Shown: positions 7,114 through 29,735, numbered from the stretch's first letter. The stretch is DNA of 61,821 bases from an uncultured Gammaproteobacteria bacterium (GCA_964472675.1 CAYYLO010000005.1:1-61821), one strand, 5' to 3'. Notes: generated by a model from the sequence alone, not told the origin. Program-made: numbers and translations.

Positions 7114-7333
7114 CGTAACCTTCTCGAGTTATAGAACTGGCATAGTCAAGTGCAGCTTTTATATGTTTGGGGTTGAGCGCCGGGAAGGCTTCAATTATTT
7201 CCTTCTCTCCTGCCCCTTCAGCCAACATCTCCAAAACTTGCCAAACCATTATCCTCGTTCCTTTAAGTGTGGGCTTACCATGGCAAATTTTCGGATCAGC
7301 CACGATGTATTTATTAATTACAACTTTTTTCAT
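7076..7333 (-). CDS. DUF433 family antitoxin
   Basis: DPKICHGKPTLKGTRIMV...IKAALDYA; overlaps the toxin gene. Confidence 0.9.
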   Translation of the reverse strand: MKKVVINKYIVADPKICHGKPTLKGTRIMVWQVLEMLAEGAGEKEIIEAFPALNPKHIKAALDYASSITREGYVVVNTQSAISSR

Positions 7334-7430
7334 GCTTACATTGTAGCACAAAAATTCAAATCAGCTCGCAGAAAACGGGTCTATTGTGGTACACTTTGCA
7401 CAAACCTCTTCAAAAAGAGGGCCTGTTTGT

Positions 7431-8462
7431 ATGAAAAAAATATTATCTTCACTTTTTATTGCCCTGCTTCTCCTGTCTATTTGGTCACCAAGGCAAATTT
7501 ATGCTGCTACATGCACCTATGAATTTGAACCCAAAGGACCCACAGCCGACAGGCCAGTTAAATTTATTATTTCCAACCCAGAAGGTTTTAACCAGGCCGA
7601 TCGATATCGTTTGAGGCTGACAAATACTTTTGGGGCAGATGACTGGATATCGGGTTTCTTTACTCCAATTAATGGAAAACTTGAGTTCCAGGCGGGAGGA
7701 CGAAGGGATGAAACCAAGGCAGGCACACACACCATCTCTGTTCGTGCAGAATCAGACAATCAAGATAGATGCACTTTCACTTACACCATTAAACCTCAAG
7801 AGCAAGGATGTAATGTGGTAAGAGAACCCAAAGGACCTGGCGTAGGCCAGTCAGCAAAATTAACTTTTTCTAATCTTGCCTTAAAACAAGGCGTAAACGC
7901 CGGCTGGGGCAGATGGTTTGCAGAAATAACCCCCCGAAGTAGTGGCTCCATAAAGGCTGTCAACGAAAAAGCAGGCGGTGTCGAAGTGGTGACAGGAGAC
8001 TTCAAGTCAGAAGGTAGCTACACAGTTACTCTTAAAGGACGCAGTGGTCTAAGTACTAAGGTGTTCTGCCAAACCATAGTCCGTGTTGCCCAAAATCCTG
8101 GGGATCAGTCTGCTTACACACTACAGCCGGGCGAATCCCAACCCACCTCTCCCAGCGAAATTAAACGCTGTGGAGATGATAACTCGGGCCTTTCCACTGC
8201 GCTCGGCTGCATACCAGTTGGAGATACTAATTCTTTTGTTGGGTGGTTTTTGAAGTGGGCACTTGGAATTTCTGGAGGAGTAGCGTTTTTATTGATTATT
8301 TTCGCAGGGTTTCAAATTATGTCTTCGACAGGCAATCCGGATAAAATTCAAGGTGGGAAGGAGCTCCTAAACGCAGCGATATCCGGTTTAATTTTGATAA
8401 TCTTTTCTGTCTTCTTGTTAAAATTAATTGGAGTAGATATATTAGGTCTACCGGGATTCTAA
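7431..8462 (+). CDS. Secreted tandem Ig-like domains fused to a C-terminal T4SS pilin
   Basis: Signal peptide, two C..PKGP...C beta-rich repeats, TALGCIP and GFQIMSSTGNPDKIQGGKELLNAAISGL pilin motif. Confidence 0.75.
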   Translation: MKKILSSLFIALLLLSIWSPRQIYAATCTYEFEPKGPTADRPVKFIISNPEGFNQADRYRLRLTNTFGADDWISGFFTPINGKLEFQAGGRRDETKAGTHTISVRAESDNQDRCTFTYTIKPQEQGCNVVREPKGPGVGQSAKLTFSNLALKQGVNAGWGRWFAEITPRSSGSIKAVNEKAGGVEVVTGDFKSEGSYTVTLKGRSGLSTKVFCQTIVRVAQNPGDQSAYTLQPGESQPTSPSEIKRCGDDNSGLSTALGCIPVGDTNSFVGWFLKWALGISGGVAFLLIIFAGFQIMSSTGNPDKIQGGKELLNAAISGLILIIFSVFLLKLIGVDILGLPGF

Positions 8463-8464
8463 AA

Positions 8465-8803
8465 ATGGAACTTGCGCAAGCAGTTACACCAGCAATAAAT
8501 TTTGATGTCTTGCAAGACAACTTAAACCAAACAGGTTACAATCCCCAGTTGAACACGCTCGGTGGAATCGTGAGCGCTTTTGTACCTTATGTTTTTGGTC
8601 TGGCTGGTATAGTTTTGTTTCTTTACTTCATCTGGGGAGGGTTTGGAATCATGATGTCCCATGGTGATCCAAAAGCCACCGCCGCCGGAAAAGACAGGAT
8701 AACCCACGCCGTCATTGGCTTTGTAATTATTTTTGCTGCCTTTTGGATTGTGCAAATATTAGGCTTGATATTAGGCATTCCGCAGTTTAGAAATCTCTTT
8801 TAA
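8465..8803 (+). CDS. VirB2/TrbC-like T4SS pilin
   Basis: GGFGIMMSHGDPKATAAGKDRITHAVIGF between two TM helices. Confidence 0.8.
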   Translation: MELAQAVTPAINFDVLQDNLNQTGYNPQLNTLGGIVSAFVPYVFGLAGIVLFLYFIWGGFGIMMSHGDPKATAAGKDRITHAVIGFVIIFAAFWIVQILGLILGIPQFRNLF

Positions 8804-8829
8804 GTTTGTGATACAATCTGAAACCTGAC

Positions 8830-9609
8830 ATGGCAAAACCTACCCCGTCTCCAAACGGTGTTCCTAATCATGTGGCCATAATTATGGATGGCAACCGCCG
8901 CTGGGCTGCAAAACATGGACTTGGCGCAGTTGACGGACACAGGGTCGCTGCTGAAAAGACGATAAAGCCGGTTGTCGAACACGCCATAAAACGTGGGATT
9001 GGTCACCTAACTTTTTGGGCATTCTCTACAGAAAACCAAAAACGTGACACTCTCGAGCTTCAGGGACTTTTTAAAATCTTCCGGGATGCTTTAAAAACTA
9101 ACCTTTTGGAACTTGCGGAGTTGGGAGTTAAAATAAGAATAATAGGCAACATCGACTGGTTCCCAAAAGATATTGCCACATTGGCCAAAAAAATTGTTGA
9201 AAAAACCAGAGACAACAAAAAAATCACCGTTTCTTTTGCTCTAAATTATGGCGGTCGCGATGAAATCCTGCGGGCTATCTCCCGCCTTTTGGACAAAATC
9301 CAAACTCACAATCGCTCTGTAGAAACTCCTATAACTGAAGAGGAGTTTTCAAGCTACATGGATACCGCTGGCATACCTGATCCTGATCTGATTATTAGAA
9401 CCGGCGGGGACAAAAGGCTTTCGGGGTACTTCCCCTGGCAGGCGGTCTATAGCGAACTTTACTTTACAAAAACTTTGTGGCCTGATTTTTCGCCTTCAAA
9501 ATTTGAGTTGGCTTTGAAAAACTTTGCCCAACGCACCAGAAGATTCGGGAAAGGCAAGTTTATAGATTACCTCAAGAACGCAGCCAAAAAAGTGGCAGTT
9601 GGACATTAG
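8830..9609 (+). CDS. uppS: Undecaprenyl/polyprenyl diphosphate synthase
   Basis: HVAIIMDGNRRWA, AFSTEN, LNYGGRDEI, DPDLIIRTGG, RLSGYFPWQ. Confidence 0.97.
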   Translation: MAKPTPSPNGVPNHVAIIMDGNRRWAAKHGLGAVDGHRVAAEKTIKPVVEHAIKRGIGHLTFWAFSTENQKRDTLELQGLFKIFRDALKTNLLELAELGVKIRIIGNIDWFPKDIATLAKKIVEKTRDNKKITVSFALNYGGRDEILRAISRLLDKIQTHNRSVETPITEEEFSSYMDTAGIPDPDLIIRTGGDKRLSGYFPWQAVYSELYFTKTLWPDFSPSKFELALKNFAQRTRRFGKGKFIDYLKNAAKKVAVGH

Positions 9610-9617
9610 CCACACCG

Positions 9618-9699
9618 TGTCATTTCGAACGGAGTGAGAAATCTAGTTATTCTGCACTTCAACGAGATCTCTCGTCAGTTACACCTCCTCGAGATGACA
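9618..9699. mobile_element. Palindromic MITE/REP-like element
   Basis: Terminal inverted repeats TGTCATTTCGA...TCGAGATGACA with internal GAGAAATCT/AGATCTCTC. Confidence 0.75.
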
Positions 9700-9752
9700 A
9701 CTATCACCGCTTTTCTTGCAAAGCTACGCTTCTGCCTGATACACTTAGAACT

Positions 9753-10163
9753 GTGAAAATAATAAAAAGTAACTCGTCAGCTCGCAACATAGTAACTAGT
9801 TTCGCAAAGTGCACAATTGCCGCCCTCTTTACTCTAATCATTAATCACAAGTTACTAGTCACCTCTGCCTTAGCTGTCGATATAGGCGCCGAGTACAATT
9901 CTCCTGTAAAAAATATCACCGACATGGGAGGTTTGGTCTCGACCGTAGCCGGGAATCTTTATCTTATCGCCGGCGTTATAGTCTTCATCCTTTTCCTGTG
10001 GGGCGGGTTTGAATACATCCGTGGCGCAGGCTCTGATGACAGGGATGCCATTGGCCGCGGGAAAAAGATTATTTTCTCGGCAATTACCGGTTTCTTGATT
10101 ATCTTCGTCTCATATTGGATAATTCTACTTATTGAAATGTTGACCAACGTTAAAATATTTTAA
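9753..10163 (+). CDS. VirB2/TrbC-like T4SS pilin
   Basis: GGFEYIRGAGSDDRDAIGRGKKIIFSAITGF. Confidence 0.8.
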   Translation: MKIIKSNSSARNIVTSFAKCTIAALFTLIINHKLLVTSALAVDIGAEYNSPVKNITDMGGLVSTVAGNLYLIAGVIVFILFLWGGFEYIRGAGSDDRDAIGRGKKIIFSAITGFLIIFVSYWIILLIEMLTNVKIF

Positions 10164-10164
10164 T

Positions 10165-10680
10165 ATGAGAAATCTCATCTTTGCTTTGATACTCTTTTTA
10201 TCTATTGTCTTTTTTGGTGCATCTCCAGCTTTTGCTCAAGCAGGCAGTACCTTCGACAGCGAAGTGGAGTGTCGACTTTCCGGATGTTCAGGCACCTGTA
10301 ATGATATAACTGTGGGCGATCAACCCACGTTTGTCTGTTACACCTCCACTGGCGGGACTGGAGCTTTATTTGGAAAAATTAAACCACCCGCTAAAGTAAC
10401 TTCAGACGTTTCAGGCTTAGGTAATTTTATTGGCGCAATTTTAAGACTCTTAGTTATTGCTGGTGGAGTTTGGGCTCTGTTTAACTTTATAATTGCAGGG
10501 TATCAGTTCATTCAAGCCGGCGGGGATGCAAAAGCAGTTAGTGCCGCCTGGGCAAGAATTTGGCAAAGTCTTGTAGGTATAGTCATAATTGCTGCGTCTT
10601 TCCTGTTTGCAGCTATCATTGGGCAAATATTCTTTGGAAGTCCAACAGCAATTCTTTCGCCAAAACTTATAACACCATGA
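10165..10680 (+). CDS. VirB2/TrbC-like T4SS pilin with Cys-rich N-terminal extension
   Basis: Signal peptide, CRLSGCSGTC...C, AGYQFIQAGGDAKAVSAAWARIWQSLVGI. Confidence 0.8.
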   Translation: MRNLIFALILFLSIVFFGASPAFAQAGSTFDSEVECRLSGCSGTCNDITVGDQPTFVCYTSTGGTGALFGKIKPPAKVTSDVSGLGNFIGAILRLLVIAGGVWALFNFIIAGYQFIQAGGDAKAVSAAWARIWQSLVGIVIIAASFLFAAIIGQIFFGSPTAILSPKLITP

Positions 10681-11042
10681 TAGAACTAATCGCAGACACA
10701 AGCCTTGGAGAATTAAAAGGACTTGGTCCTTTGGGTGACCCCGCCTCCTTTTCAGAAGGCACAGGCGGACTTTTGGAGAAGTTATTGTCCAATATTATTG
10801 GCTTTTTAACTGTGGGGGCTATCTTGTGGTTTGTTGTTCAAATCGTCATTGGGGGTTACAGCTTAATGACAGCAAGCGGAGATCCTAAAGGAGCAGCTGA
10901 TGCAAGACAAGGGATCACAAATTCAATAATCGGGTTGGTTGTTGTTTTTGTAGCATTAATTTTTGTTTCCGTTATCGGATTCCTATTGGGGGTTGATGTT
11001 TTGAAAATTGGCGATTTTGTTAACAACTTAAGTATTAAATAG
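10677..11042 (+). CDS. VirB2/TrbC-like T4SS pilin
   Basis: GGYSLMTASGDPKGAADARQGITNSIIGL; ATGA overlap with the previous gene. Confidence 0.8.
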   Translation: MIELIADTSLGELKGLGPLGDPASFSEGTGGLLEKLLSNIIGFLTVGAILWFVVQIVIGGYSLMTASGDPKGAADARQGITNSIIGLVVVFVALIFVSVIGFLLGVDVLKIGDFVNNLSIK

Positions 11043-11049
11043 AACACAC

Positions 11050-11382
11050 ATGTACCTGGCAGATATCTCAAACCCAATAACACCTAGACTAAATCCTACA
11101 GCAGGAACTTCTGTTGGTTTGTTTAGCTCAGTCATTGCTGTAATTATCAAAACTCTATTTGTTGCCGGATTTGTACTATTTATCGTTTACTTTTTAATTG
11201 GAGGTCTGCAGTGGATTACATCCGCAGGAGATGCAAAAGCCCTTGAAAAAGCCCGCAATAGTGTAACCCAGGCAATTTTTGGCATTGTAGTTATGCTTGC
11301 CCTCTTTGCAATCATAAGGCTTATTGAAGCTGTCTTTGGCGTCAACATTTTACAAATTGATCTTGGCGCGATTAAAATATAA
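11050..11382 (+). CDS. VirB2/TrbC-like T4SS pilin
   Basis: GGLQWITSAGDAKALEKARNSVTQAIFGI. Confidence 0.85.
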   Translation: MYLADISNPITPRLNPTAGTSVGLFSSVIAVIIKTLFVAGFVLFIVYFLIGGLQWITSAGDAKALEKARNSVTQAIFGIVVMLALFAIIRLIEAVFGVNILQIDLGAIKI

Positions 11383-11407
11383 TTACATACGGTGAGGGGG
11401 TGAAAAC

Positions 11408-11806
11408 ATGACAAAACAAACTTTAAATTTTCTTTGGGCGTCTAGCGTAGCTTTGGCTCTTTCTGCAACACCAATTGCAGCTCAAGAATCAGCAAAAATT
11501 AATGTGGGTACAGGTGCTCCATCCACAACCGTTGCTAACCTAACAATTGGAGCAATCGTCTCAACAGCTATTAAAATTTTAGTCGTTGTTGCAGCTGTCT
11601 TGTTCTTCTTCTGGTTGGTATTAGGTGGTATTAAATGGATCACCTCAGGTGGAGATAAAAACAAAACCGAAGAAGCTCGCCAACAAATAACGTCAGCTTT
11701 GGTTGGTTTGGTTGTAGTCTTTTCAGCCTGGGCAATTGCCCAACTTATAAGGATATTGTTCGATGTCGACTTGTTCAATCTTACGATTAGCAGAGTTGGT
11801 GTCTAA
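11408..11806 (+). CDS. VirB2/TrbC-like T4SS pilin
   Basis: GGIKWITSGGDKNKTEEARQQITSALVGL; signal peptide. Confidence 0.85.
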   Translation: MTKQTLNFLWASSVALALSATPIAAQESAKINVGTGAPSTTVANLTIGAIVSTAIKILVVVAAVLFFFWLVLGGIKWITSGGDKNKTEEARQQITSALVGLVVVFSAWAIAQLIRILFDVDLFNLTISRVGV

Positions 11807-11904
11807 CAGCAAAAGTGATAGGGATTAGTGATAGCGATTTTAGGTGTCTATCCTGATCCCTTTCGCATTTTGCCCCATCGCTGCTTTTCTGATACACTTG
11901 CAAT

Positions 11905-12243
11905 ATGGCAAGCTGGTTGGGAACTGCATGTGTTGGCACAAAGATAAGCGACACAGTTGATGCGTCGGATGTCGCAACAATTGCTGGTTTGGAGTGCGCT
12001 TTTGGGAACGTCATTGGTGTCGTTTTGGCTCTTTCCGGTGTGGTAGTTTTCGTTACGTTTTTGATAGGAGGTTTTAAATATCTAACCTCAGGATCTGATC
12101 CAAAGGCAGTAGAATCAGCAAAACATACTCTAACAGCAGCCATTGCGGGGCTAGTTGTTTTGGTTTTGGCATTTGCGGTTTTATTGGTTATTCAAGCTGT
12201 AACAGGAGTGCAGGTAACTCAATTTAAAGTAACGACTCCATAG
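11905..12243 (+). CDS. VirB2/TrbC-like T4SS pilin
   Basis: GGFKYLTSGSDPKAVESAKHTLTAAIAGL. Confidence 0.85.
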   Translation: MASWLGTACVGTKISDTVDASDVATIAGLECAFGNVIGVVLALSGVVVFVTFLIGGFKYLTSGSDPKAVESAKHTLTAAIAGLVVLVLAFAVLLVIQAVTGVQVTQFKVTTP

Positions 12244-12254
12244 GAATGGAGTAA

Positions 12255-12310
12255 TTTCTAATTTTCAATTTACAATTTTCAATCAATTATCAAATTACAA
12301 TTTTTAAATT
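12255..12310. repeat. AT-rich 7-mer (AATTTTC-like) microsatellite
   Basis: aatttct aattttc aatttac aattttc ... aaattac aattttt. Confidence 0.7.
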
Positions 12311-12321
12311 AGAAACTCTTC

Positions 12322-13431
12322 ATGATCCGCTTCTTATCATTCTTATCACTATTTCCCTTCTTTTTGATTCTGTTCACACAAACCACGCACGCTGCTGATA
12401 CTACTCCCGATTCTTATGGAACCGAAAAGGGCCAGCAGCTATTTAGCCCTGAAAACGCCCAGAAATTAATTCCTTATAAAGGAGATTCTCCAACCATTGC
12501 TGACTTCGGAAAATCTGCGGAGTTTTTCCGTGACTCAACCAATGCCTATGCTCCCACACCCTCTCCCCAAGCACAAATTGATCCAAACTCTAAAGTGTTA
12601 GGCAGTTCCATTTTTGAAAACTTCTTTAATGCCCTCAGGGGTCTGTTTGATGAAGTTTTCGCCAGGCTTTTTTCTGGCGGCATACCTTTCTTTGGGACTA
12701 TTTACACCAATGGAACAAATGCTCCTAAGCTGACCGAAACAGAAGAAACAAAGAACGAGTTTAACCGCGGAGTTGACGAATATATCGACTCACTAAACCC
12801 ATTCAACGCTAATCCCTTCAGAATAACCTCAGGAATCGCCTCAGCCTTCAATATGCAATCCGAAAATCTTAAGGGAATCATAAATAGTGCAGCCGAAGCA
12901 ACTGAAGTTCCAGCCCCTCTTTTATTGGCTATCTCCCAAACCGAAGCCCCGGGAGCTTTTAGCTACACAGATGAGGACGTGAAGTTTTTTAGCACGGACA
13001 ATTGGTGGGCTGGTTCGCCATACGACACCCTCAAAAAGGGGTATTGCTACAATACCTGTTCTGATCCGTCATTGGGTTGTCCAAACAACGACGTCCGTGG
13101 AGCAACACAATTCGAGGCCGCCACATGGAGAAGTTTAATAAACGATAACGCCTCTCGTGGTTTAGTAGGTATCCAAAGCGTGTTGCAATCAAAATTTGGA
13201 TTGAACAAGACCATCACTGCCGACGACCGGTGTAATGTGGCTGCAGCTTTTGTTGGCACAGCTGTTAAAATAAAAAGGGACGCCGGAGCAACACCAGCTT
13301 GGGACGAGCCAACTATAAGAAAGGTTGCTGGGGCCTACTGTGGAACATGCAACCCAAGTCGTGCGTGTGGGCCTGATTACTGTGGAACCGTATGGAGGCT
13401 TTTTAAGTCATATTCTTCCCAATCACAATGA
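12322..13431 (+). CDS. Secreted lytic transglycosylase/lysozyme-like protein (VirB1-like)
   Basis: Signal peptide; VPAPLLLAISQTE (catalytic Glu position), GATQF, AYCG. Confidence 0.65.
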   Translation: MIRFLSFLSLFPFFLILFTQTTHAADTTPDSYGTEKGQQLFSPENAQKLIPYKGDSPTIADFGKSAEFFRDSTNAYAPTPSPQAQIDPNSKVLGSSIFENFFNALRGLFDEVFARLFSGGIPFFGTIYTNGTNAPKLTETEETKNEFNRGVDEYIDSLNPFNANPFRITSGIASAFNMQSENLKGIINSAAEATEVPAPLLLAISQTEAPGAFSYTDEDVKFFSTDNWWAGSPYDTLKKGYCYNTCSDPSLGCPNNDVRGATQFEAATWRSLINDNASRGLVGIQSVLQSKFGLNKTITADDRCNVAAAFVGTAVKIKRDAGATPAWDEPTIRKVAGAYCGTCNPSRACGPDYCGTVWRLFKSYSSQSQ

Positions 13432-13838
13432 AATACCTTACTGCCATAGGCCAGTTTTTTACCAGGAGTAAAAAAAGAATTGCTGTCTTGTTGATTGTTA
13501 TCTTGTTAGCAGCAGGCTATGTGTTTACCAGCAACAACCAGGCTCCCGCTACACAAACCACCTCACCTCTTCCAACACCAACCAAAGCCCTAACCATACA
13601 GGAACAAAACGCTTTACAGCAAAACAAGCAGCGTTTAATTTCTCAACTGCCCTTCAGTTCGGAGCAATTCACAGTCCAGTACTTCCCTGACCAGGACTAT
13701 TTCTTAATCTCTATTCAGAGGCAGCCATACGAAAATAATAAAGCCTTAGCGGAAAGTTGGATGAGACAAAATGGAGTTGATCCAGGGTATGTAACAATCC
13801 AATGGAGCGCCGTCCGCGGCGCCGGCCCCAGACAATAA
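13428..13838 (+). CDS. Bitopic membrane protein, hypothetical
   Basis: TM IAVLLIVILLAAGYVF, Thr/Pro linker, small alpha/beta domain; ATGA overlap. Confidence 0.7.
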   Translation: MKYLTAIGQFFTRSKKRIAVLLIVILLAAGYVFTSNNQAPATQTTSPLPTPTKALTIQEQNALQQNKQRLISQLPFSSEQFTVQYFPDQDYFLISIQRQPYENNKALAESWMRQNGVDPGYVTIQWSAVRGAGPRQ

Positions 13839-13864
13839 CCAGTTTTCGTCCGCGGCTTCGCTCC

Positions 13865-14233
13865 CTAACGAAGAGGAACCAGTCTCACTTCAAGCTTGGC
13901 ATTGAGTGCCCTTGCAACTTTTTCTAAAGTTTTGTGGGTATAGCCTGTATAGTCCGCTGCTTCAATCCGAGCAATGTTGGATTGAGTAGTTCCAACCAAT
14001 TTTGCCAACTGCGTTTGAGTAAGACCCGCTTTTTTGCGAAGATCATAAATCTGAAGAGCAATACCCCAAGCAGCCCCTGCTTGGTCAAGCTCGTACTGAA
14101 AAGCAGGATCCTCCTTGAGAATTTTTTCTATTGTTCTATCAAGATCGTCTTTTTTTCTTTTCATTTTCCTCCTTGTGATAAACTCTACTTCTAAGTTCAA
14201 GTTGTCCTGGTAGTAACTAATTTCAAATTCCAT
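13865..14233 (-). CDS. XRE/HigA-like HTH regulator (possible alternative start at 14164)
   Basis: LRKKAGLTQTQLAKLVGTTQSNIARIE. Confidence 0.9.
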   Translation of the reverse strand: MEFEISYYQDNLNLEVEFITRRKMKRKKDDLDRTIEKILKEDPAFQYELDQAGAAWGIALQIYDLRKKAGLTQTQLAKLVGTTQSNIARIEAADYTGYTHKTLEKVARALNAKLEVRLVPLR

Positions 14234-14238
14234 AGTGG

Positions 14239-14258
14239 TTATATCAAAGTTGATATAA
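14239..14258. promoter_or_regulatory. Operator-like inverted repeat inside the XRE promoter
   Basis: TTATATCAA-AG-TTGATATAA; minus-strand TTGACA (14260-14265) and TATAAC (14238-14243) flank and overlap it. Confidence 0.65.
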
Positions 14259-14351
14259 ATGTCAAGAAGTGCAATTGATTTTTAAGGTGGTTTTTTGACA
14301 AGTTACTTAGTATGGTATATGCTTGTTTTTAGGCTAAACCATATTAAGTAT

Positions 14352-15314: not shown

Positions 15315-15357
15315 GGCTTTTTGTGCTAAGATCGTGTTAGAGTACAAAACGTAATCC

Positions 15358-16770: not shown

Positions 16771-16795
16771 ACATTAGTAGATGATTGAATCTTCC

Positions 16796-18853: not shown

Positions 18854-18913
18854 ATACCAAATTATACAAGAAAAGTTGTTCTACTCCAAGCTTATTGCTA
18901 TTATTAGTAAGTT

Positions 18914-20272
18914 ATGGCTGAAACTGCTCCAATATCCGAAGGTCCAAGACCAGAAATTAGCCCTTTTGACAGCTTAAGAAAAAATTTTGGTGCAGCTGCT
19001 CGACAGATAAGAGGAATTGAGAGTGGGAACGAAGCCGAAATGCGCGCAGCTGTTCACGATCCTGAAGTTTGGAAAAAGACATTTCAACGTCTAGCCGTCC
19101 CGGGAGAAAGTGTGGATACTTGTCATCAAAATTACTGTAGGGAACTTGCCCAGACAGCCGTGCAACTTGGAGCCAGTAATGAACAAGTTCAAAGCTTTGA
19201 AAGTTTTTTAGGGCTCCCCGAGGGGAAAATTGATTACTATTCGGCTTTTATGGATGCTACGAGTTGGCAAAAAGCTGCCACTGGCGGAACCCCGGGTGGC
19301 GTAGAAAGAAAAGCTGAACCAGTTGATCTTTTTCAAGCACACCCACCCGAAACTGGAGAAAAACTGCCGCGCTATAGAGATAGAGATGAGCAAATTGCTT
19401 ACAGAACTTACCAGGAAGCCTGGAACCCCAACCCGTTAATGGCAAACCGTGTTGATAACTGGTTTGAGAACGAACGGGCCAGGTTAAGAGCGCGCGGTGA
19501 AGTAGGACAATCTTCTGAAAAAAGAGAAGTAAGGCCTCCATTGAGGTGGTTGTTGGATGAAATTAATACGTCACTGAAAGATAGAAATGTCGACCTAAAC
19601 GACCGTACACAAGTTGAGGCTCAAATAAGAAACGAAGCATTTTGGCTGGGAACTCCTGAGAGCTTTTGGGAAAAACTGGCAGTAGGTTCTAAGCAAAGGC
19701 CGGAGGATTTCCAGGAGGAAAAATGCAGGGAAGTTTTAGAAGATATCCGAACAAGGAGAGGAGGGCATGACGATAGAGCCGAACTGCGCACCCTATTTGG
19801 GCTGCCCCCAGGTTACAGGTTTGATCTTTATGATTTAATTGACATAACAAATGGTTTTATCACCAACTCCCAACTTGTGGAACAAGAGGCTCGCCAATCA
19901 AGTGCCGCCAGCCAGATACCTACATCAGAAGTACCAATTCAAGAACTGATTAATCAAGGAGACAAAGATGACAGTACCCCAAGAAGATGGCAGAGATTCC
20001 GTGGCTCACTCAACCCCTTGGGTGGCGCCACTATGGCTACCCAAATCACTACACCAGAAGAGCCTGAAGCAGTCCAGGTGGAAGAGGTTGAGACACCTGT
20101 GGCCAGTGAAGGTTTAACTGGTGGCCTTCGCGAAGCGTTCCAAAAAGCGCAACAAGAACAAGCCCGGGAAGATAAGACTGGCAACAATGATAAAAGAGCG
20201 CAAAGAAGACAAAAGAGAGACGAACAGATCCGCCGCGCCCGAGAGCTCCGCAGAAAATACAGCGGCGGGTAA
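18914..20272 (+). CDS. Hypothetical 452-aa charged protein with Arg-rich C-terminus
   Basis: Long ORF, no TM or signal, no recognised family. Confidence 0.75.
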   Translation: MAETAPISEGPRPEISPFDSLRKNFGAAARQIRGIESGNEAEMRAAVHDPEVWKKTFQRLAVPGESVDTCHQNYCRELAQTAVQLGASNEQVQSFESFLGLPEGKIDYYSAFMDATSWQKAATGGTPGGVERKAEPVDLFQAHPPETGEKLPRYRDRDEQIAYRTYQEAWNPNPLMANRVDNWFENERARLRARGEVGQSSEKREVRPPLRWLLDEINTSLKDRNVDLNDRTQVEAQIRNEAFWLGTPESFWEKLAVGSKQRPEDFQEEKCREVLEDIRTRRGGHDDRAELRTLFGLPPGYRFDLYDLIDITNGFITNSQLVEQEARQSSAASQIPTSEVPIQELINQGDKDDSTPRRWQRFRGSLNPLGGATMATQITTPEEPEAVQVEEVETPVASEGLTGGLREAFQKAQQEQAREDKTGNNDKRAQRRQKRDEQIRRARELRRKYSGG

Positions 20273-20395
20273 TTCCCGTGTTTTGTGAAAAATCCTCCGA
20301 GTTGCAAACCCGTTTTCATATGTTAAGTTTGAAATAGAGAGACTTTTGAAGTATATTGTTTAACTCTCCTGGTTTTGCTTGATTTTTATACCCTT

Positions 20396-21367
20396 ATGCC
20401 TTTAGAACAACATCCAGTACCACAAGAGATTTCATCCTACGAATTCCGCTTAGTCGGAGATATGACTTTGAAGCAATTTTTACAACTTGCCGGCGGGGTA
20501 GGAGTTGCCTTTTTGATTTTCGTTACTCCCCTTCCTGCTTTTATTAAATGGCCGGTAGTCGCATTCGCAGCAATTTCAGGTGCCGCTTTGGCTTTTTTGC
20601 CCATTGAAGAAAGGCCTTTGTCTTTCTGGTTTTTCTCATTTATTAAAGCCGTTTACTCACCAACACTTTATTCTTGGGAAGATGGGACATCACAAGACGT
20701 TTTTGCAAAAGAAAGCGCAGCAGTAACACCCGCAATTATTGCCCCCCAAGGCCAGGAAAAAGCCGAAGAGTATCTACGCTCTGTTCCGCAAACAGAAGTT
20801 GTAAACCGGCTTGAAGAAATAGAAAAAGGGTTTTTCAAAAAAATCTTTGGCCTGTTCCAAACGCCAACTCCCTCAGGCACGCCAACCCCAACTCAAGTCT
20901 CACCACAAGTTACATCCTTGCCTACTCCGGCTATTATTAATCCCAACGCACCGCTGGCTCCACCCACAGAATCAATTAAAATTGAACACCAACAAGCTGA
21001 ACACAATCCCACTCCGATTACTCCTGTTTATGGCAGCAATATACAACCCGCCCGACAAGCCGCACAAGCCCAGTTTGCATTGCAGGCTGCTCCTCCCAAT
21101 CCTCCCGTACAGCCCAACATTATTGTCGGCCAAGTAATCACCAATGACGGCAAAATCATTGAGTCGGCAATTTTGGAAATCAGAGAAGTTGGCGGCACAC
21201 CAGTCAGAGCTTTGCGCACCAACAAAATTGGACACTTTATGACAGTTACTCCCATAAAAGACGGGGAATATGAAATTTTAACAGAGAAAGAGGGATTAAC
21301 TTTCGATGTAATTAAAATAACAGCCAGCAGCAATATTATTCCACCGATACTAATAAAGGCGAAGTGA
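20396..21367 (+). CDS. PrgI (VirB3-like) family protein with C-terminal carboxypeptidase-regulatory-like beta domain
   Basis: HPVPQEISSYEFRLVGDMTLKQF, LAFLPIEERPL; VRALRTNKIGHF. Confidence 0.85.
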   Translation: MPLEQHPVPQEISSYEFRLVGDMTLKQFLQLAGGVGVAFLIFVTPLPAFIKWPVVAFAAISGAALAFLPIEERPLSFWFFSFIKAVYSPTLYSWEDGTSQDVFAKESAAVTPAIIAPQGQEKAEEYLRSVPQTEVVNRLEEIEKGFFKKIFGLFQTPTPSGTPTPTQVSPQVTSLPTPAIINPNAPLAPPTESIKIEHQQAEHNPTPITPVYGSNIQPARQAAQAQFALQAAPPNPPVQPNIIVGQVITNDGKIIESAILEIREVGGTPVRALRTNKIGHFMTVTPIKDGEYEILTEKEGLTFDVIKITASSNIIPPILIKAK

Positions 21368-21406
21368 AATTTACAATGTAAATTGGAAATTGAGAATTGA
21401 AAATTA
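21366..21406. repeat. 7-mer (AATTGAA-like) microsatellite
   Basis: aattgga aattgag aattgaa aatt; reverse complement of the 12255 tract type. Confidence 0.7.
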
Positions 21407-21411
21407 TTTAT

Positions 21412-22056
21412 ATGTCTACTATTGTTCCCATAAAAGCATCCTCTCAACAGCACGTCATTGTTGCTGATATTGCTGAAGATATAGTTTTGACTAAAGACGG
21501 CGGAGCGGCATTGGTTTTGCGCTCCTCGGCTTTAAACTTTTCGCTTTTATCTGAAAAAGAGCAGGAGGCAGTAACGGTTTCTTATGCTGCTCTTTTAAAT
21601 TCTTTATCCTTTCCTATCCAAATTCTTGTCCGCTCTCAAAAAAAGGATATTACCCGCTACCTGGCGTTTTTGGATACTCAAGAAAAACTCCAAACCAATC
21701 CGCAACTAAAAAGCCTTATGGTCGTTTACAAAAATTTCGTTTCCCAAATGGTAAAAAAAAGGAATGTTTTAGAAAAAGAATTTTATATAGTCATACCTTT
21801 CTCGCCGCTTGAACTGGGTATAACCACAGGCGGTTTTATCGATTTATTTACTCCTTCAGTTAGAACAAAAAAGGCAAAAAGCTTGCCTTATTCAAAAAGT
21901 TATATTATCAAAAAAGCAAAAACGGTTCTTTATCCAAAACGTGATCATTTAATCCGCCAAGTAGGCCGCTTAGGAATTAAAATGGATCAGTTGACAACGG
22001 AAGACTTGGCCACCTTGTTTTTTAAAATATACAACTCAAGCTCTCCGACCACCTAA
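21412..22056 (+). CDS. VirB4/TraC N-terminal-like conjugation accessory protein
   Basis: LNFSLLSEKEQEA...LLNSLSFPIQIL, KEFYIVIP, RLGIKMDQLTTEDLATLF. Confidence 0.7.
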   Translation: MSTIVPIKASSQQHVIVADIAEDIVLTKDGGAALVLRSSALNFSLLSEKEQEAVTVSYAALLNSLSFPIQILVRSQKKDITRYLAFLDTQEKLQTNPQLKSLMVVYKNFVSQMVKKRNVLEKEFYIVIPFSPLELGITTGGFIDLFTPSVRTKKAKSLPYSKSYIIKKAKTVLYPKRDHLIRQVGRLGIKMDQLTTEDLATLFFKIYNSSSPTT

Positions 22057-22063
22057 AAAACTT

Positions 22064-23938
22064 ATGCAATTACCAAACACAATTCCCGATTTGAAACCAA
22101 AAAGCCAGGTCGAACCACCAGCGGTAAGCAAACCCGCTTCCTCCAAATCTATCCAGGACATTATTGCCCCGCAAAAAATAGAGGTCGATTTTAACTACAT
22201 AAAAATCGACGGCCGGTACTTTAGAACTCTTTTTGTTTCAGGCTATCCAAGATTTGTTTATCCTGGATGGCTTGACCAAGTTATTAACTTTGACCACTCA
22301 TTAGACATCTCCTTTTTCACCTATCCAGTTGCCGGAAAAACAGTCCTTGATGATTTAAGACGCAAGATAACTGAAATGGAGGCAGAACTTGCTACCGACT
22401 TACAACGCGGGAAGGTGCTAAATCCTTCAACACAGGCAAAATTAGAAGATGCTCGAGATTTGCAAGACCAATTAGTAAAAGGTGCAGAGCGCTTTTTTCA
22501 GTTTTCTTTTTATATCACCATTCCGGCTTCAAACCTGGAAGAGTTAAACAATATTACCGCCCAAGTTGAATCAACTTTGGGGTCATTGTTGGTTGTAGCT
22601 AAAAAAACAACATTACGTATGGAAGACGGTTTCTTAACAAGCCTACCTTTAGGAGAAGACCGGCTTTCTATAACCCGCAATATGGATACAACTTCTCTTT
22701 CAACTACGTTTCCATTTTCTTCAGCTGAACTCTCCTCAGATAGCGGAGTTTTATATGGAATCAACGAAGATAACGATTCGTTGGTTGTTTTTGACAGATT
22801 TTCCCTCGAGAATTACAACTCGGCAGTTTTTGCAACTTCGGGATCCGGCAAAAGCTACAGCGTGAAGTTAGAAGCACTGCGATCCTTAATGTTGGGGGCG
22901 GAGGTTTTTATTATTGATCCCGAGCAGGAATATAAAAAGCTGGCCGAAGCAGTAGGCGGTGAATTTATTTCATTTTCCTTTAACTCGACTGCAAAAATTA
23001 ACCCTTTTGATTTGTCCAACATTGTCGACCAGGACGAAAATCAGTTGGGCTTAAAAATTCTTTCTTTGCATTCTTTGTTTGGAGTAATTATGGGCGCTCT
23101 AAATCCTTCCGAACAGGCAGTTTTAGACAGGGCTTTAATTGCGACATACAAAGCAAAAGGAATCACTCCTGACCCGGCTACACAAACCAAAACTCCCCCC
23201 TTAATGGAAGATCTTTATAAAACACTAATCGGTATGGAAGATGCCGTCTCCCGCTCTCTTGCCGACCGGATTGAAAAGTTTGTTAAGGGCTCTTTTGCCG
23301 GAATTTTTGATCAGCACACAAACATAAGTCTTAAAAACCCGTTTACTGTTTTTTCTGTCCGCGACCTGGAAGAATCATTGCGGCCGATTGCGATGTTTGT
23401 AGTTTTGGATTTTATCTGGACCCGCGTCAAAGAAAACTTGAAAAAGCGCATTTTAATCGTTGATGAGGCGTGGCATATGATGCGCTATCCGGATACTGCT
23501 CAATTTCTCTTCTCTATCGCCAAACGCTCGCGCAAATATTATTTGGGTTTAACAACTATAACTCAAGACGTAGAAGACTTTTTATCCTTAGATATTGGCA
23601 AGGCTATTGTTACTAACTCAGCCTTGAAACTTCTGATGAAACAGTCCCCTACGGCTATAGATAAGGTTGGTGAGGTTTTTAAACTTTCCCAGGGAGAAAA
23701 ACAGCTGTTATTATCTGCTGACGTGGGAGAAGGAATTTTCTTTGCCGGACCAAATCATGTTGCTATCCGTGTCGTGGCCTCAGACGAAGAACATAAATTA
23801 GTTACCACCAACCCTGCAGAAACACTTAAAAATCCCACACCAACAACCCCTACTTCCCCAAATACACCCATTACCCCAACTCCTACCTCACCCCCAGTTA
23901 ATTCAGGTCCTATCCTTCGCGTCGAAGAAGCTCAGTAA
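22064..23938 (+). CDS. VirB4-like conjugation ATPase
   Basis: Walker A ATSGSGKS, IIDPEQEY, Walker B ILIVDEAW, RSRKYYLGLTTITQ. Confidence 0.92.
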   Translation: MQLPNTIPDLKPKSQVEPPAVSKPASSKSIQDIIAPQKIEVDFNYIKIDGRYFRTLFVSGYPRFVYPGWLDQVINFDHSLDISFFTYPVAGKTVLDDLRRKITEMEAELATDLQRGKVLNPSTQAKLEDARDLQDQLVKGAERFFQFSFYITIPASNLEELNNITAQVESTLGSLLVVAKKTTLRMEDGFLTSLPLGEDRLSITRNMDTTSLSTTFPFSSAELSSDSGVLYGINEDNDSLVVFDRFSLENYNSAVFATSGSGKSYSVKLEALRSLMLGAEVFIIDPEQEYKKLAEAVGGEFISFSFNSTAKINPFDLSNIVDQDENQLGLKILSLHSLFGVIMGALNPSEQAVLDRALIATYKAKGITPDPATQTKTPPLMEDLYKTLIGMEDAVSRSLADRIEKFVKGSFAGIFDQHTNISLKNPFTVFSVRDLEESLRPIAMFVVLDFIWTRVKENLKKRILIVDEAWHMMRYPDTAQFLFSIAKRSRKYYLGLTTITQDVEDFLSLDIGKAIVTNSALKLLMKQSPTAIDKVGEVFKLSQGEKQLLLSADVGEGIFFAGPNHVAIRVVASDEEHKLVTTNPAETLKNPTPTTPTSPNTPITPTPTSPPVNSGPILRVEEAQ

Positions 23939-23956
23939 ATACGGTACAATACAAAT

Positions 23957-25903
23957 ATGGCTACAAAACCTGGTGGCTTTTTTAGCGTCTTCTCCAATAT
24001 TGTTTCCGACCTACAACAGCGCGTAAACCGGACTTTGTTTCGTTCTCAAAACCCTGCACATGGGGTTCCCCCAACCACAGCTGTTCCGCCAACCACAAGA
24101 ATCCAACAAAGTCCTCCTTGGATATCAGATGACTCGGACAAGCTAGTTTATCAGCAAACTAAAACAGAACTTAAGGAAATTCCCCAGGGAGAAAAGCAAC
24201 GTATCAAATCCCAATCGCCACTTGAGCAGGCGCTTGAAAAAGGCACCCAACTTGAACAATGGCAAGAATTACAAAAACAAACACCGGTTACGCCAGAAAC
24301 GACAGAAAACCCCATAAAAGTTCCGTTTATTCCCATATCCCGCCCAGTAAGGCCTATATCAATACAAACAGAGAAAGTTGCAACACCCGACATAAGCCGG
24401 GAACAATATCTTTTAGCCTTAGTTTCCCGCCCTAAAAGTTGGCAGGACCGTATTGTTGATGGTTTAAAAGATGCTATTCCCTTTCTCCCAAAATCACACA
24501 CCTCAGAAGAGAGACTGGAAGATGCTATCAATCAACTTATTGCCCAAAATCCCGAATTTGCCAACTCCGAGGAAGTTAGGGTTGTTAAAGATTCTAAAAA
24601 AGGAATCCTTGAGGAAGTTGAAACCTTAACCGGACAAGTAAAAGATGTCCGATTTGTGCCCCCAAAAAGCTACGACTATGAACAACCCCGCATAGGCTCC
24701 GGCGATCATGTTTTTAACTTAAATATCAGCCCCTCCTCAAATATTGTTCGCATCGCCCAAGAACCCTTTAATCGGTTTATTTCTCCCAAATTTGCCCCTG
24801 TTTTGAAACAGTTTGCGGGCAGTGCAGCCCAAAACGCCGCTTCCCAATCAGCAATTCTGGGGAGAGGTCTGATTTCGGGAGCAGCTCGCGGATTGAGTTC
24901 TGGATTATTGAGGACAGCCATGGGTGCTGGAAGATTGCTGGCTATCTTTGCTGGAGGCGGACAAGCAGCAGCCATCGGCGGGGGCGCTTTGGCTTTAATA
25001 CTAATTCTGGTTATCGCTTTACCTTTGGTTCTCAATAACACCGGTCCTATTTTTACTCAGCGCGCAGCCTTAAGTAGTGCTGGCGGTACAGGAGACGTAC
25101 TTGCCAAAGGCAACCAATATATTTCAATTGAAATCTCTTCTTCTAAAAATACGCTTAAAAATGAAGAGTTGCCTCAAGATGTAACTTTTACTGTTACAGT
25201 CAAACCAAAAAAGCAGCCATTTCAGGAAGATCCTAATATTTCAGCAACTATAACTGCATCAGGTAAAGATGGCACAAAAACCCTGGTAAGTGAAAGTTGG
25301 TCGGAAGAAACTCACCAAATCAATCTAAAGCTGGAAAACTTGGAAGACGTCAATGTTATCCTGGCCGTTAGTGTTAGTGCTAGAGTCGAAGAACAACCAG
25401 ACAGCCAAACCGCTGCCAACAACGCTTCAATTAGGGTGGGAAACCCACCTGATGATTGCCCCAGTGGTTGGGCAACAACTTATGGAACCATAACCTCCGA
25501 ACCAAATGATTCAGTCGTCTCAACCCACCGAACCGCAGAAGCGATCGATATCGGCAACAGCCCGAAAGGTAGAATTCAGGGCGCGCCAATTTACGCAACC
25601 AGCCGTGGTGTGACCTCGTTTAACTGCTACAGCTCTTTATATGGAAACTGTGTTCGGATAACAACTTCCTGCAACGGTAAAACAGTCGAAATAATATATG
25701 CCCACATGATGAACAGAAGTGTCCAGGACGGCCAAGGTGTTTCTTCAGGAACTCAAATTGGAAGTGTTGGAGCAACAGGTAACGTCTTTGGCAGCGATCC
25801 AAACCATTTGCATTATGAATTCTTAAAAATTAGTGGTTCTGTTACAATTCCAATGGCACCACCATATATACCCTTGCACGGAAAACGCGGAACTACATGG
25901 TAA
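23957..25903 (+). CDS. Membrane-anchored M23 family peptidase
   Basis: HRTAEAIDI (HxxxD) and HLHYE (HxH); Gly/Ala-rich TM region. Confidence 0.85.
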   Translation: MATKPGGFFSVFSNIVSDLQQRVNRTLFRSQNPAHGVPPTTAVPPTTRIQQSPPWISDDSDKLVYQQTKTELKEIPQGEKQRIKSQSPLEQALEKGTQLEQWQELQKQTPVTPETTENPIKVPFIPISRPVRPISIQTEKVATPDISREQYLLALVSRPKSWQDRIVDGLKDAIPFLPKSHTSEERLEDAINQLIAQNPEFANSEEVRVVKDSKKGILEEVETLTGQVKDVRFVPPKSYDYEQPRIGSGDHVFNLNISPSSNIVRIAQEPFNRFISPKFAPVLKQFAGSAAQNAASQSAILGRGLISGAARGLSSGLLRTAMGAGRLLAIFAGGGQAAAIGGGALALILILVIALPLVLNNTGPIFTQRAALSSAGGTGDVLAKGNQYISIEISSSKNTLKNEELPQDVTFTVTVKPKKQPFQEDPNISATITASGKDGTKTLVSESWSEETHQINLKLENLEDVNVILAVSVSARVEEQPDSQTAANNASIRVGNPPDDCPSGWATTYGTITSEPNDSVVSTHRTAEAIDIGNSPKGRIQGAPIYATSRGVTSFNCYSSLYGNCVRITTSCNGKTVEIIYAHMMNRSVQDGQGVSSGTQIGSVGATGNVFGSDPNHLHYEFLKISGSVTIPMAPPYIPLHGKRGTTW

Positions 25904-25928
25904 CAAAGAAGGTGTCATCCCAAAAACT

Positions 25929-26906
25929 ATGTTAAATTTTTTCAAAAACCACTGGCTTCTAATAATGCTGGCTGTAATTGCTACCCTGCTGGCCATAGTC
26001 TGGGTTCAGGGGGAAAGCAACAAAACTGCCAAACAATCTCTCCCCAACCTACCCGCGATTACTTATCCAAACCTGACGGGCCAGAACGTTCCTCCCGCGA
26101 TTACTTTCAATCTCACAGGGGTAGATCTGCCAACCCAGGTTTCTCTTTATCAAATATCTCCCAAGAGTTTAAATTCCACCCAGGCTAAAGCTTTGGCTAG
26201 AAATTTTGGCTTTCCTGAAAATCCGTCTAATATTTCAACCGACAGCGCTTTGGGAGATTATTATCTTTGGCTTTCAGGGTCAAAAAGTTTATCAGTTAGA
26301 CTCTCGCCATTAGATATCAACTTCGTCCAAGACCCAGGCAGTTCCCCACCGCCTTCCGAAGGAGAATTGCCCAATAAACAAACAGCATTCACTTTTGTCC
26401 AAAACCTTCTATCGACCAATGATCTAAACCTGATTGGAACAACTTTGGCCGTTAGTGGTTCCCGCAAAACATCGGAAGATAATATTCTTGAGTTAAAACT
26501 TGACCCAATAATCGGGCAAACAAAAGTTGTCGATAATAACACCACAACCTCCCTGGTCACTTCCTATTTGGGGAAAGACGGCAAAGTTTATTCTCTGCTT
26601 TACAAAGCAGGTTTTACAAATCCCCATAATCCAACCGGCTACCCTTCCAAAACTCTAGAACAAATTAAAGAGTCTTTGGTAAAAGAAGGTAAAATTGTCA
26701 CACTTGGGGCACCAACCACTGAGCCTGCGCTTTATGTCCCTGTTTCAGTCAATATTATAAGGATTGAAAGTGCCTTACTTTTTTACCCTACACAGCCAGA
26801 CGCTTTATACCCAATTTATATTCTTACGGGCACATCCAAAACCAACGAAGGAGACCAGCCAGTCTATATTTATACTCCAGCCATAAACTCAAAGTATGTG
26901 CGTTAA
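25929..26906 (+). CDS. Membrane-anchored extracellular hypothetical protein (possibly YycH/YycI-like fold)
   Basis: N-terminal TM, soluble domain ending LYPIYILTG...YIYTPAI. Confidence 0.55.
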   Translation: MLNFFKNHWLLIMLAVIATLLAIVWVQGESNKTAKQSLPNLPAITYPNLTGQNVPPAITFNLTGVDLPTQVSLYQISPKSLNSTQAKALARNFGFPENPSNISTDSALGDYYLWLSGSKSLSVRLSPLDINFVQDPGSSPPPSEGELPNKQTAFTFVQNLLSTNDLNLIGTTLAVSGSRKTSEDNILELKLDPIIGQTKVVDNNTTTSLVTSYLGKDGKVYSLLYKAGFTNPHNPTGYPSKTLEQIKESLVKEGKIVTLGAPTTEPALYVPVSVNIIRIESALLFYPTQPDALYPIYILTGTSKTNEGDQPVYIYTPAINSKYVR

Positions 26907-29605: not shown

Positions 29606-29702
29606 GTTTTGTTTCCACATTAAAGAGTTATCCACAATTAGTGTCAACCCCTAAAAAGGACGAAACGCTCCCTGTTGTTTTACACGACATTGTTGTGTAA
29701 AA
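29581..29702. promoter_or_regulatory. DnaA-box cluster upstream of dnaA
   Basis: TTTTCCACA 29581, GTTTCCACA 29611, TTATCCACA 29628, TGTGTAAAA 29694. Confidence 0.75.
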
Positions 29703-29735
29703 TAATACAACTCGTTTCAAAACAGCTTCATAACG

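Follow-up and report, generated by a model that had tools for sequence, protein, structure and literature searches.

The closest described relatives of the locus reported here are the type IV secretion systems (T4SSs) of the Patescibacteria. The locus lies in a 61.8-kb stretch of DNA deposited as an uncultured Gammaproteobacteria bacterium (CAYYLO010000005.1, positions 1-61821; the whole stretch is referred to as the window), and it includes a gene for a VirB4 ATPase. The window matches GCA_016187265.1. The VirB4 proteins of Patescibacteria form a clade of their own nested in the MPF-FATA class, found with TrsD and PrgI and with arrays of 2-11 VirB2-like pilin genes of ~25% identity (Quinonero-Coronel et al., 2025, PMC12102498). 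In the same study, relaxases were near-absent from these systems, VirB6 homologues were scarce in Microgenomatia, and the T4SS genes were located near dnaA, dnaN, rnpA and rpmH, above all in Paceibacteria and Microgenomatia, which was interpreted in terms of gene dosage. Southlakia epibionticum (Saccharimonadia) cannot grow as an epibiont without its T4SS and the pilins of that system, while a recognisable relaxase and coupling proteins are lacking (Wang et al., 2023, PMC10633639), as repeated in a 2025 review (PMC12857230). The T4SS is thus essential for epibiotic life in the sole Patescibacteria species tested.

The ORF (open reading frame) map and profile searches place the T4SS locus at 7386-26906, with 19 of its 21 genes on the plus strand (Table 1). 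To the left are smpB, the transfer-messenger RNA (tmRNA) gene and a SpoIID-like gene; to the right are dnaN, dnaA, rpmH, rnpA, yidD, yidC and jag, followed by LeuRS, TsaD, TGT and others. The locus is very probably an ordinary representative of the chromosomal T4SS of Patescibacteria, of monoderm (MPF-FATA) conjugation descent and fixed beside oriC. The system as such is not new, given that chromosomal, relaxase-free, origin-proximal T4SSs with pilin arrays have been published (PMC12102498; PMC10633639). A preliminary description of this DNA had listed pilins, PrgI, a VirB4 accessory protein, VirB4 and an M23 protein, nearly all on the plus strand, and had read the locus as a chromosomal T4SS derived from the monoderm conjugation core. 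The ORF map and profiles agree with that inventory, and the curated VirB4 match and the conserved synteny described below agree with that reading. The description had also held the core not to be new, and all of it but the strand orientation can indeed be found in the two papers.

For comparison, 80 loci from species-representative genomes (VirB4 identity 66-93%) were mapped by tblastn. By record title they are mostly Blackburnbacteria, Woesebacteria and Microgenomates (some Patescibacteria). Their common gene order is pilins, VirB6-like, opposite-strand large ORF, PrgI, TrsD, VirB4, M23, dnaN (minus), dnaA (minus), rnpA, yidC, jag and RNase H. dnaN is kept in 66 of the 80 loci and dnaA in 65, always on the strand opposite to virB4, and wherever a locus extends as far as dnaN (66 cases), dnaN and virB4 are convergent. 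Gene order and orientation are the same in these 66/66 loci, which rules out the sporadic distribution that the preliminary description had named as a refutation. Other related records have uninformative titles such as 'bacterium' or, like L006, L009, L012 and more, are titled 'uncultured Gammaproteobacteria'; they share the Microgenomatia T4SS-dnaN-dnaA synteny, and for that reason the latter titles look wrong.

In the window's locus, the membrane core consists of VirB4 with the TrsD-like protein, PrgI/VirB3 and a divergent VirB6-like channel protein. The best PDB match of VirB4 is the Thermoanaerobacter VirB4 4ag5 (E 9.7e-45), and the protein aligns to positions 182-734 of the 752 positions of the NF045971 (CD1110) profile. 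The TrsD-like protein, whose gene is adjacent to virB4 in 80/80 loci, also matches the VirB4_plasma profile at positions 113-233. Because VirB4 covers 182-734 only and the TrsD-like protein matches the N-terminal part, VirB4 is in effect split into two genes. PrgI, present in 78/80 loci, bears a long Pro-rich C-terminal extension. The protein that the preliminary description had called VirB6-like gave no Pfam, NCBIfam or PDB sequence match in family and profile searches, and its 187 homologs are every one named hypothetical. Its AlphaFold2 model (pLDDT 81.7), compared with 350,542 PDB chains, had R388 TrwI/VirB6 as its top three matches (probability 0.90-0.97, E 0.14-0.64, TM-score 0.40-0.48). 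The label can thus be kept with moderate confidence, on structural rather than sequence-family grounds. The VirB6-like protein is present in 62 loci and evolves fast, with a median identity of 42% where that of VirB4 is 90%.

Directly after the VirB6-like gene, the opposite strand carries a large ORF (440-1067 aa) in 62 of the 62 loci that cover the interval, and also in L084 and L085. We refer to the 685-aa product of the window's ORF as BIG. Because an opposite-strand large ORF holds that slot in every relative, the BIG gene is no insertion. The preliminary description had taken enclosed cargo genes as the likely novelty, an idea that is half right: the HTH and Fic slot discussed below is variable, while 16796-18853 is a fixed-position though hypervariable part of the locus. 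BIG comprises a helical N-terminal module (~20-160), a long helix (187-229) and a C-terminal module (270-660) together with disordered linkers, and has neither a transmembrane (TM) segment nor a Walker A motif. Its positional equivalents are likewise soluble, with TM-like segments in 2/64, Walker A in 3/64 and 31% charged residues. The AlphaFold2 model of BIG has a mean pLDDT of 83.5, with most of the C-module above 90, and Foldseek found no structural analogue of it in PDB or BFVD.

Fixed in position, the BIG slot is hypervariable in content. The positional equivalents fall into 15 BLAST clusters plus singletons, and no profile-profile link (hhalign) from the other clusters to the window's cluster was found. 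A word-index search for BIG homologs returned four, and an exhaustive profile search of 1.84 billion proteins yielded 36 representatives, some aligned over the N-terminal 200 positions only and others over positions 268-655 only. The same division is seen between close loci: the L084 and L001 proteins are 75% identical over the first 164 residues and have unrelated C-termini, while those of L084 and L085 are 42% identical over the last 510 residues with nothing before. By these alignments, the N and C modules reassort independently. Cassette replacement is also apparent in pairs of loci that otherwise have ~83-95% identical DNA. In L042/L043, the DNA is ~90% identical save for an unalignable 4.1 kb that spans the VirB6-like and BIG genes, and in L022/L023 and L037/L044 unalignable tracts of 1.6-1.7 kb correspond to the C-terminal two-thirds of the BIG gene only. 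Across 21 pairs with VirB4 identity of at least 85%, median identities were 90% for VirB4, 42% for the VirB6-like protein, 18% for the first 200 residues of BIG and ~3% for the rest, the called ORF starts possibly lying too far upstream and lowering the apparent N-terminal identity of BIG.

Divergent from BIG is a gene for a soluble, charged 452-aa protein, found in 3/80 loci plus L084 and in the Blackburnbacteria lineage only, which tracks the N-module type of BIG and not its C-module type (n=4). Over the 685-aa and 452-aa genes (17000-20000), GC is 46-48%, compared with ~42% around them. We also noted a terminator-like site after the 452-aa gene (20265-20279) and a promoter-like site before prgI (20329-20357), both at consensus level only and not relied on.

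Given the fixed slot, the conserved N-module, the recombining C-modules and the missing enzymatic signature, BIG resembles a polymorphic effector or specificity determinant, and a conserved module joined to alternative, recombining C-terminal modules is a trait of polymorphic toxins and effectors that BIG displays. We consider BIG a candidate T4SS substrate or specificity factor, a role to which these sequence comparisons give somewhat less than an even chance. A little more tentatively still, Microgenomatia T4SSs may possess a dedicated polymorphic module, made up of BIG, with its unseen fold, and the co-varying VirB6-like protein. BIG would then be the long-sought substrate or host-specificity determinant of the essential Patescibacteria T4SS, recognised via its N-module without a coupling protein and with a diversity that tracks host range. 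The hypervariable BIG slot together with the VirB6-like gene seems not to have been described, as far as a non-exhaustive literature search indicates.

We propose the following scheme. The locus probably encodes a host-contact machine with a VirB2-type pilus, for the export of protein or for macromolecule exchange with a host; here we follow the literature on Patescibacteria T4SSs. Its ATPase-driven core would assemble a pilus or conduit contacting the host bacterium, and the machine would move protein or other macromolecules, not DNA of the cell itself. Contact with, or specificity for, the host would fall to a variable module at mid-locus, formed by the fast-evolving VirB6-like protein and the adjacent opposite-strand BIG. 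BIG may be recognised via its more conserved N-module, and the 452-aa protein, transcribed divergently from it, is a possible partner, while its C-module would be exchanged by recombination. A contribution of the origin position to gene dosage, as suggested in PMC12102498, is plausible. The window offers a clean Microgenomatia example, and the 80-locus comparison provides a handle on the machine in the form of a fixed slot with a fast-swapping BIG gene beside a fast-evolving VirB6-like gene. Should BIG prove to be a substrate or specificity factor, what the machine does could be put to the test, and host range could perhaps be predicted from sequence.

Several observations weigh against this scheme, most of them against BIG as a substrate or specificity factor. 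Most of its positional equivalents have no detectable similarity to the window protein, and the N-module profile (hidden Markov model, HMM) detects only 9/62 of them, seven in Woesebacteria-type loci. No toxin or enzyme domain was found by Pfam in BIG or in nine representative relatives, and no secretion signal of a known type was found. Known T4SS substrates usually have C-terminal, not N-terminal, signals. No immunity-like gene was seen next to BIG, the downstream neighbour being the convergent VirB6-like gene. VirD4-like genes occur in most Patescibacteria, far from virB4 (PMC12102498), and the genome may have a coupling protein or a relaxase elsewhere. Finally, the Southlakia interval between the VirB6-like protein and PrgI holds SEML1_0011, a 998-aa helical protein encoded on the operon strand and listed as essential (PMC10633639), which fits a structural component as well as a substrate.

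The Southlakia protein favours the alternative that BIG is a structural or regulatory component in the cytoplasm and is not secreted, for example as a substitute for a coupling protein or as an assembly platform for VirB4 and TrsD, its fast divergence coming from co-evolution with the VirB6-like protein or the pilins. The fixed position in 62/62 loci, the co-variation with the VirB6-like gene in L042/L043 and the absence of a type IV coupling protein (T4CP) from the window are all consistent with such a role, as is a divergent control region shared with the PrgI-VirB4 unit, the gap being 60 bp to the 452-aa gene and, in L018, ~127 bp to PrgI. BIG has no NTPase motif, however, and the independent reassortment of its modules does not favour a structural part. 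The replacement of whole C-modules between ~83-95% identical genomes, in which VirB4, TrsD and PrgI are 85-98% identical, would likewise be unusual for a stoichiometric cytoplasmic subunit. On balance, we regard a structural BIG as the main rival reading, somewhat less likely than a substrate or specificity factor.

A further possibility concerns the direction of transport. The machine could work inward, taking up DNA, RNA or nutrients like ComB or Ced and so feeding an organism unable to make nucleotides. ComB and Ced need neither a relaxase nor a coupling protein, neither of which is present in the window, and VirB4 has weak similarity to CedB and CedD (36 and 33 bits). Additionally, T4SS loci of the ABY1 class accompany comF, recG and radA (PMC12102498), and a 2026 preprint connects a Patescibacteria parasite with the acquisition of host RNA and shows tubular structures, maybe T4SS pili, at the parasite-host interface (bioRxiv 10.64898/2026.06.21.733656). 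The same VirB4, however, scores 392.7 bits to conjugative CD1110, and Southlakia can do without comEC but not without the T4SS (PMC12857230), so that the essential function cannot be uptake by way of competence. Nor would an uptake channel explain why the locus encodes a polymorphic soluble protein. We consider an inward machine quite unlikely.

Upstream of the VirB6-like gene, the locus contains a second variable slot, in which the window has an XRE-type helix-turn-helix (HTH) gene and a class II-like Fic AMPylase gene. The Fic protein shows the canonical HPFFDGNGRTAR motif and an N-terminal SNAIEGN inhibitory motif, as read from sequence. The HTH and Fic families each occur in 2 of the 80 loci. 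In this interval, flanked by the 136-aa and VirB6-like genes, L084 instead has BrnT and CopG (9413-9959) and L085 has Gp49 (HigB-like) and HTH (5268-5917). Because these pairs sit exactly there, 13865-15314 is a slot for toxin-antitoxin-like modules. The HTH and Fic genes are a lineage-specific insert, a piece of variable toxin-antitoxin-like baggage rather than demonstrated effector cargo. The slot also belongs to a segment of recent exchange. Positions 12874-15373 are at least 99% identical to L001 (1-2500), a Rifle Blackburnbacteria metagenome-assembled genome that is elsewhere ~75-78% identical at the DNA level, which points to recent recombination between species within the T4SS locus. 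The near-identical L001 segment is at least 2.5 kb long, holds the lysozyme-like, 136-aa, HTH and Fic genes and stops abruptly where the VirB6-like gene begins. A metagenome scan for its left end recovered the population of L001 alone, and the flanking DNA lay on the other side.

Such exchange raises the question of mobility. Statements on absent genes refer to the 61.8 kb of the window, in which no substantial ORF had a Pfam match to a relaxase, a T4CP or an integrase, and VirB4 is the only T4SS ATPase. The window has no tRNA genes, the tmRNA gene being the only one of this kind, and neither flanking direct repeats of at least 16 nt nor a repeat of the tmRNA 3' end elsewhere in the window were detected. 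These Pfam and repeat searches uphold, for 61.8 kb, the preliminary statement that relaxase, coupling protein, integrase and att site are missing. An integrated conjugative element (ICE) or its decaying remnant, with the Fic/HTH, 685-aa and 452-aa genes as cargo, is highly improbable and an ordinary ICE is excluded: the core genes do descend from conjugation genes, locus DNA does move between species (12874-15373 being shared with a ~77% identical one), GC is higher at 17-20 kb and the tmRNA gene, of a type that islands often target, is found 6 kb upstream, but mobility genes and repeats are absent, gene order is conserved with dnaN convergent at the identical dnaN/dnaA site in 66/66 relatives whose VirB4 identity is 66-93%, and the exchange, whose breakpoints are sharp and fall at gene borders, is explained by homologous recombination in a conserved locus.

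Table 1. Features of the T4SS locus and the adjoining origin region. Start codons within the locus come from mechanical ORF calling and may sit too far upstream.
Feature	Position	Strand	Evidence
Long pilin	7386-8462	+	PF18895 at residues 289-347, 25.6 bits vs cut-off 26.6
VirB2/TrbC-like pilin 2	8465-8803	+	PF18895 46.4 bits; PF04956 TrbC E 4e-4
UppS (undecaprenyl-diphosphate synthase)	8830-9609	+	PF01255 239.7 bits
Six tandem pilins	9753-10163, 10165-10680, 10677-11042, 11050-11382, 11408-11806, 11905-12243	+	PF18895 E 3e-3 to 4e-11
Secreted wall-lytic candidate, lysozyme/SLT-like (VirB1 role)	12364-13431	+	Signal-like N-terminus, weak profile matches
Small bitopic membrane protein, 136 aa	13428-13838	+	TM segment 14-37
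XRE-type HTH gene	13865-14233	-	HTH_3 42.3 bits
Class II-like Fic AMPylase gene	14295-15314	+	Fic 86.6 bits
VirB6-like polytopic membrane protein	15358-16770	+	AlphaFold2 model, Foldseek vs PDB
Large soluble polymorphic protein, 685 aa (BIG)	16796-18853	-	Position, module comparisons, AlphaFold2 model
Soluble charged 452-aa protein	18914-20272	+	Divergent from BIG; no family match (profile searches)
PrgI (VirB3-like)	20375-21367	+	PF12666 30.5 bits vs cut-off 27
TrsD-like protein (VirB4 accessory)	21412-22056	+	NF041427 TrsD E 1.9e-6, below cut-off; precomputed PF26593 TraC-like
VirB4 ATPase, monoderm (MPF-FATA, CD1110) type	22064-23938	+	NF045971 392.7 bits vs cut-off 325; PF19044 94.2 bits
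Bitopic wall hydrolase with M23 peptidase	23957-25903	+	PF01551 59.5 bits, residues 541-624
Bitopic membrane protein, last locus gene	25929-26906	+	TM at residues 36-62 of long ORF
dnaN	26903-28003	-	Precomputed Pfam DNA_pol3_beta
dnaA	28238-29605/29647	-	Precomputed Pfam Bac_DnaA
Probable oriC / dnaA control region (dnaA-rpmH spacer)	29606-29735	.	Skew minimum and DnaA boxes

The left part of the locus holds the divergent VirB2-like pilin array characteristic of the Patescibacteria clade, here with eight PF18895 (T4SS_pilin) paralogs. In a profile search, four of them passed the Pfam cut-off and the other four narrowly missed it. Every one shows a two-helix hairpin, whose cores have pairwise identities of 19-33% (mean 26.5%) and a loop of the form G-[DN]-[PA]-K. 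The first and longest pilin (358 aa) has a Sec-type N-terminus, then ~250 aa of extracellular modules in two repeats, and ends in a VirB2-like hairpin, with hydrophobic segments at 12-34, 287-316 and 324-358, and may be an adhesin-pilin fusion. It contains two ~100-aa repeats with an 'EPKGP' motif in each, and a homolog was seen in L064 only. Lodged between pilin genes 2 and 3 is uppS, which is an essential cell-wall housekeeping gene and no part of the T4SS. It has no counterpart in the complete pilin arrays of L018, L020, L028 and L064, this placement being seen in the present lineage only. Just beyond the pilin array of L084, a close relative, is a gene for an rve-family transposase (14160-14945).

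Two genes account for wall-cutting functions. The peptidoglycan hydrolase role (VirB1/PrgK/TraG) is taken by the M23 protein, which consists of a ~330-aa cytoplasmic part, a TM segment (333-367), an extracellular part and a terminal M23 peptidase; its gene lies directly 3' of virB4, and an iterative HMM search found the family in 76/80 loci. The second protein, encoded after the pilins, is a probable though weakly supported lysozyme-like wall-cutting enzyme. The preliminary description had labelled it SLT (soluble lytic transglycosylase); a signal-like N-terminus and lysozyme/SLT-type signals are present, the latter being weak (goose-type lysozyme at E 0.14 for the family profile against PDB; an SLT_3 match in 1/18 members). 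The family occurs in 47 loci (iterative HMM), and the relatives' version at the same position is longer, at 500-1250 aa.

Of the two remaining bitopic proteins, the 136-aa protein has homologs at the same position in 8 loci plus L084/L085, and its family profile gave no family or PDB match. The family of the last gene was found in 21 loci (iterative HMM), and this protein also had no family or PDB match, the best being the VirB10 N-terminal region at a chance-level E of 0.14. No VirB8-like (NTF2-fold) protein of the kind of PrgL, TraM or TcpC was recognisable by sequence in PDB profile searches of these two candidates. The last gene, 25929-26906, and dnaN overlap by 4 nt, stop codon to stop codon (TTAA at 26903-26906). 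The overlap is thus as had been described, with this gene and not the M23 gene as the partner of dnaN.

Beyond dnaN, the cumulative GC-skew minimum lies at 29771, between dnaA and rpmH and 2.9 kb from the end of the locus. Perfect DnaA boxes are found at 28311 and 29628 (the latter TTATCCACA), and a one-mismatch box at 29581. The position of the skew minimum implies that the leftward fork meets the T4SS operon head-on, as the preliminary description had deduced from strand composition; the cumulative plot now gives 19/21 genes as head-on. dnaN and dnaA are convergent with the operon and co-directional with the leftward fork. Among the relatives' loci that extend far enough, GC skew switches sign at dnaA in 48/58. 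Southlakia SEML1_0006-0013 are on the minus strand, 5-21 kb right of dnaA (PMC10633639, Table S1), so that its T4SS operon is also transcribed towards the origin. PMC12102498 makes no mention of strand or orientation, and transcription of the operon towards oriC seems not to have been described, although the literature search was not exhaustive. Against a special meaning, the genes outside the locus are 21 co-directional and 14 head-on, the latter including LeuRS, TsaD and TGT, and with 14/35 genes likewise head-on we rejected the view that this orientation is exceptional. The head-on orientation is real and conserved; its significance is unproven, as the window has other essential genes that are head-on. 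Conserved transcription towards oriC, common to Southlakia, is a small unexplained regularity beside the published gene-dosage idea.

Some further features of the window lie outside the locus. smpB and the tmRNA gene are adjacent (507-1559), with the tag peptide GTDYSAARVTTYAYAYA. Directly upstream of the locus is a gene for a PIN-like DUF5615/Mut7-C nuclease (6748-7113, minus strand) with a small overlapping upstream ORF (7076-7351, minus strand), and the two may be another toxin-antitoxin pair. On the far right, a 1838-aa ORF (53469-58985) has three DUF5667 stretches and a GC of 47-51%, and is followed by a RhuM-family gene (59690-60718, minus strand).

Set beside MPF-FATA conjugation systems (pCF10 Prg/Pcf, pIP501 Tra, pGO1 Trs and the C. 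difficile CTn CD1110), the locus shares the CD1110 type of VirB4, PrgI, TrsD and a wall hydrolase, and has a putative VirB6/PrgH-type membrane protein (moderately supported by structure). In contrast to them, it is accompanied within the window by neither a relaxase nor an oriT nor a coupling protein, sits in the chromosome at oriC and not on a plasmid or ICE, has no PrgB-type adhesin and no VirB8-like protein recognisable by sequence, and does have the VirB2-like pilins that these Gram-positive systems lack. H. pylori ComB and archaeal Ced are similar in having a VirB4-type machine without relaxase or coupling protein in a chromosomal, non-mobile locus, but the VirB4 described here is far closer to CD1110 than to CedB, by the scores given above, and ComB is a diderm VirB2-B10 set.

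BIG itself invites comparison with the polymorphic toxins (LXG of the type VIIb secretion system, T7SSb; contact-dependent inhibition, CDI; Rhs) and with the X-Tfe effectors of Xanthomonas and Stenotrophomonas. Like them, it joins a conserved module to swapped, unrelated modules, and its gene lies inside a secretion locus. Unlike the polymorphic toxins, it lacks any known toxin domain, an immunity gene is not found next to it, and its export is a candidate function only. The XVIPCD recognition domain of X-Tfe proteins is C-terminal and VirD4-dependent, whereas the conserved part of BIG is N-terminal and the window has no VirD4.

The closest match is with the Patescibacteria T4SS, as described for Southlakia epibionticum (SEML1_0006-0019) and in PMC12102498. 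The MPF-FATA VirB4, the adjacent TrsD-like protein, PrgI, the pilin array (here eight genes, ~26%), the M23/lysozyme hydrolases by virB4 and the absence of a relaxase nearby are the same, as is, for the Microgenomatia, the location by dnaA, dnaN, rnpA and rpmH, and nothing essential differs. To the account in PMC12102498, the present comparison adds structural support for a VirB6-like protein in Microgenomatia, the head-on orientation, the Fic/HTH slot and the BIG slot.

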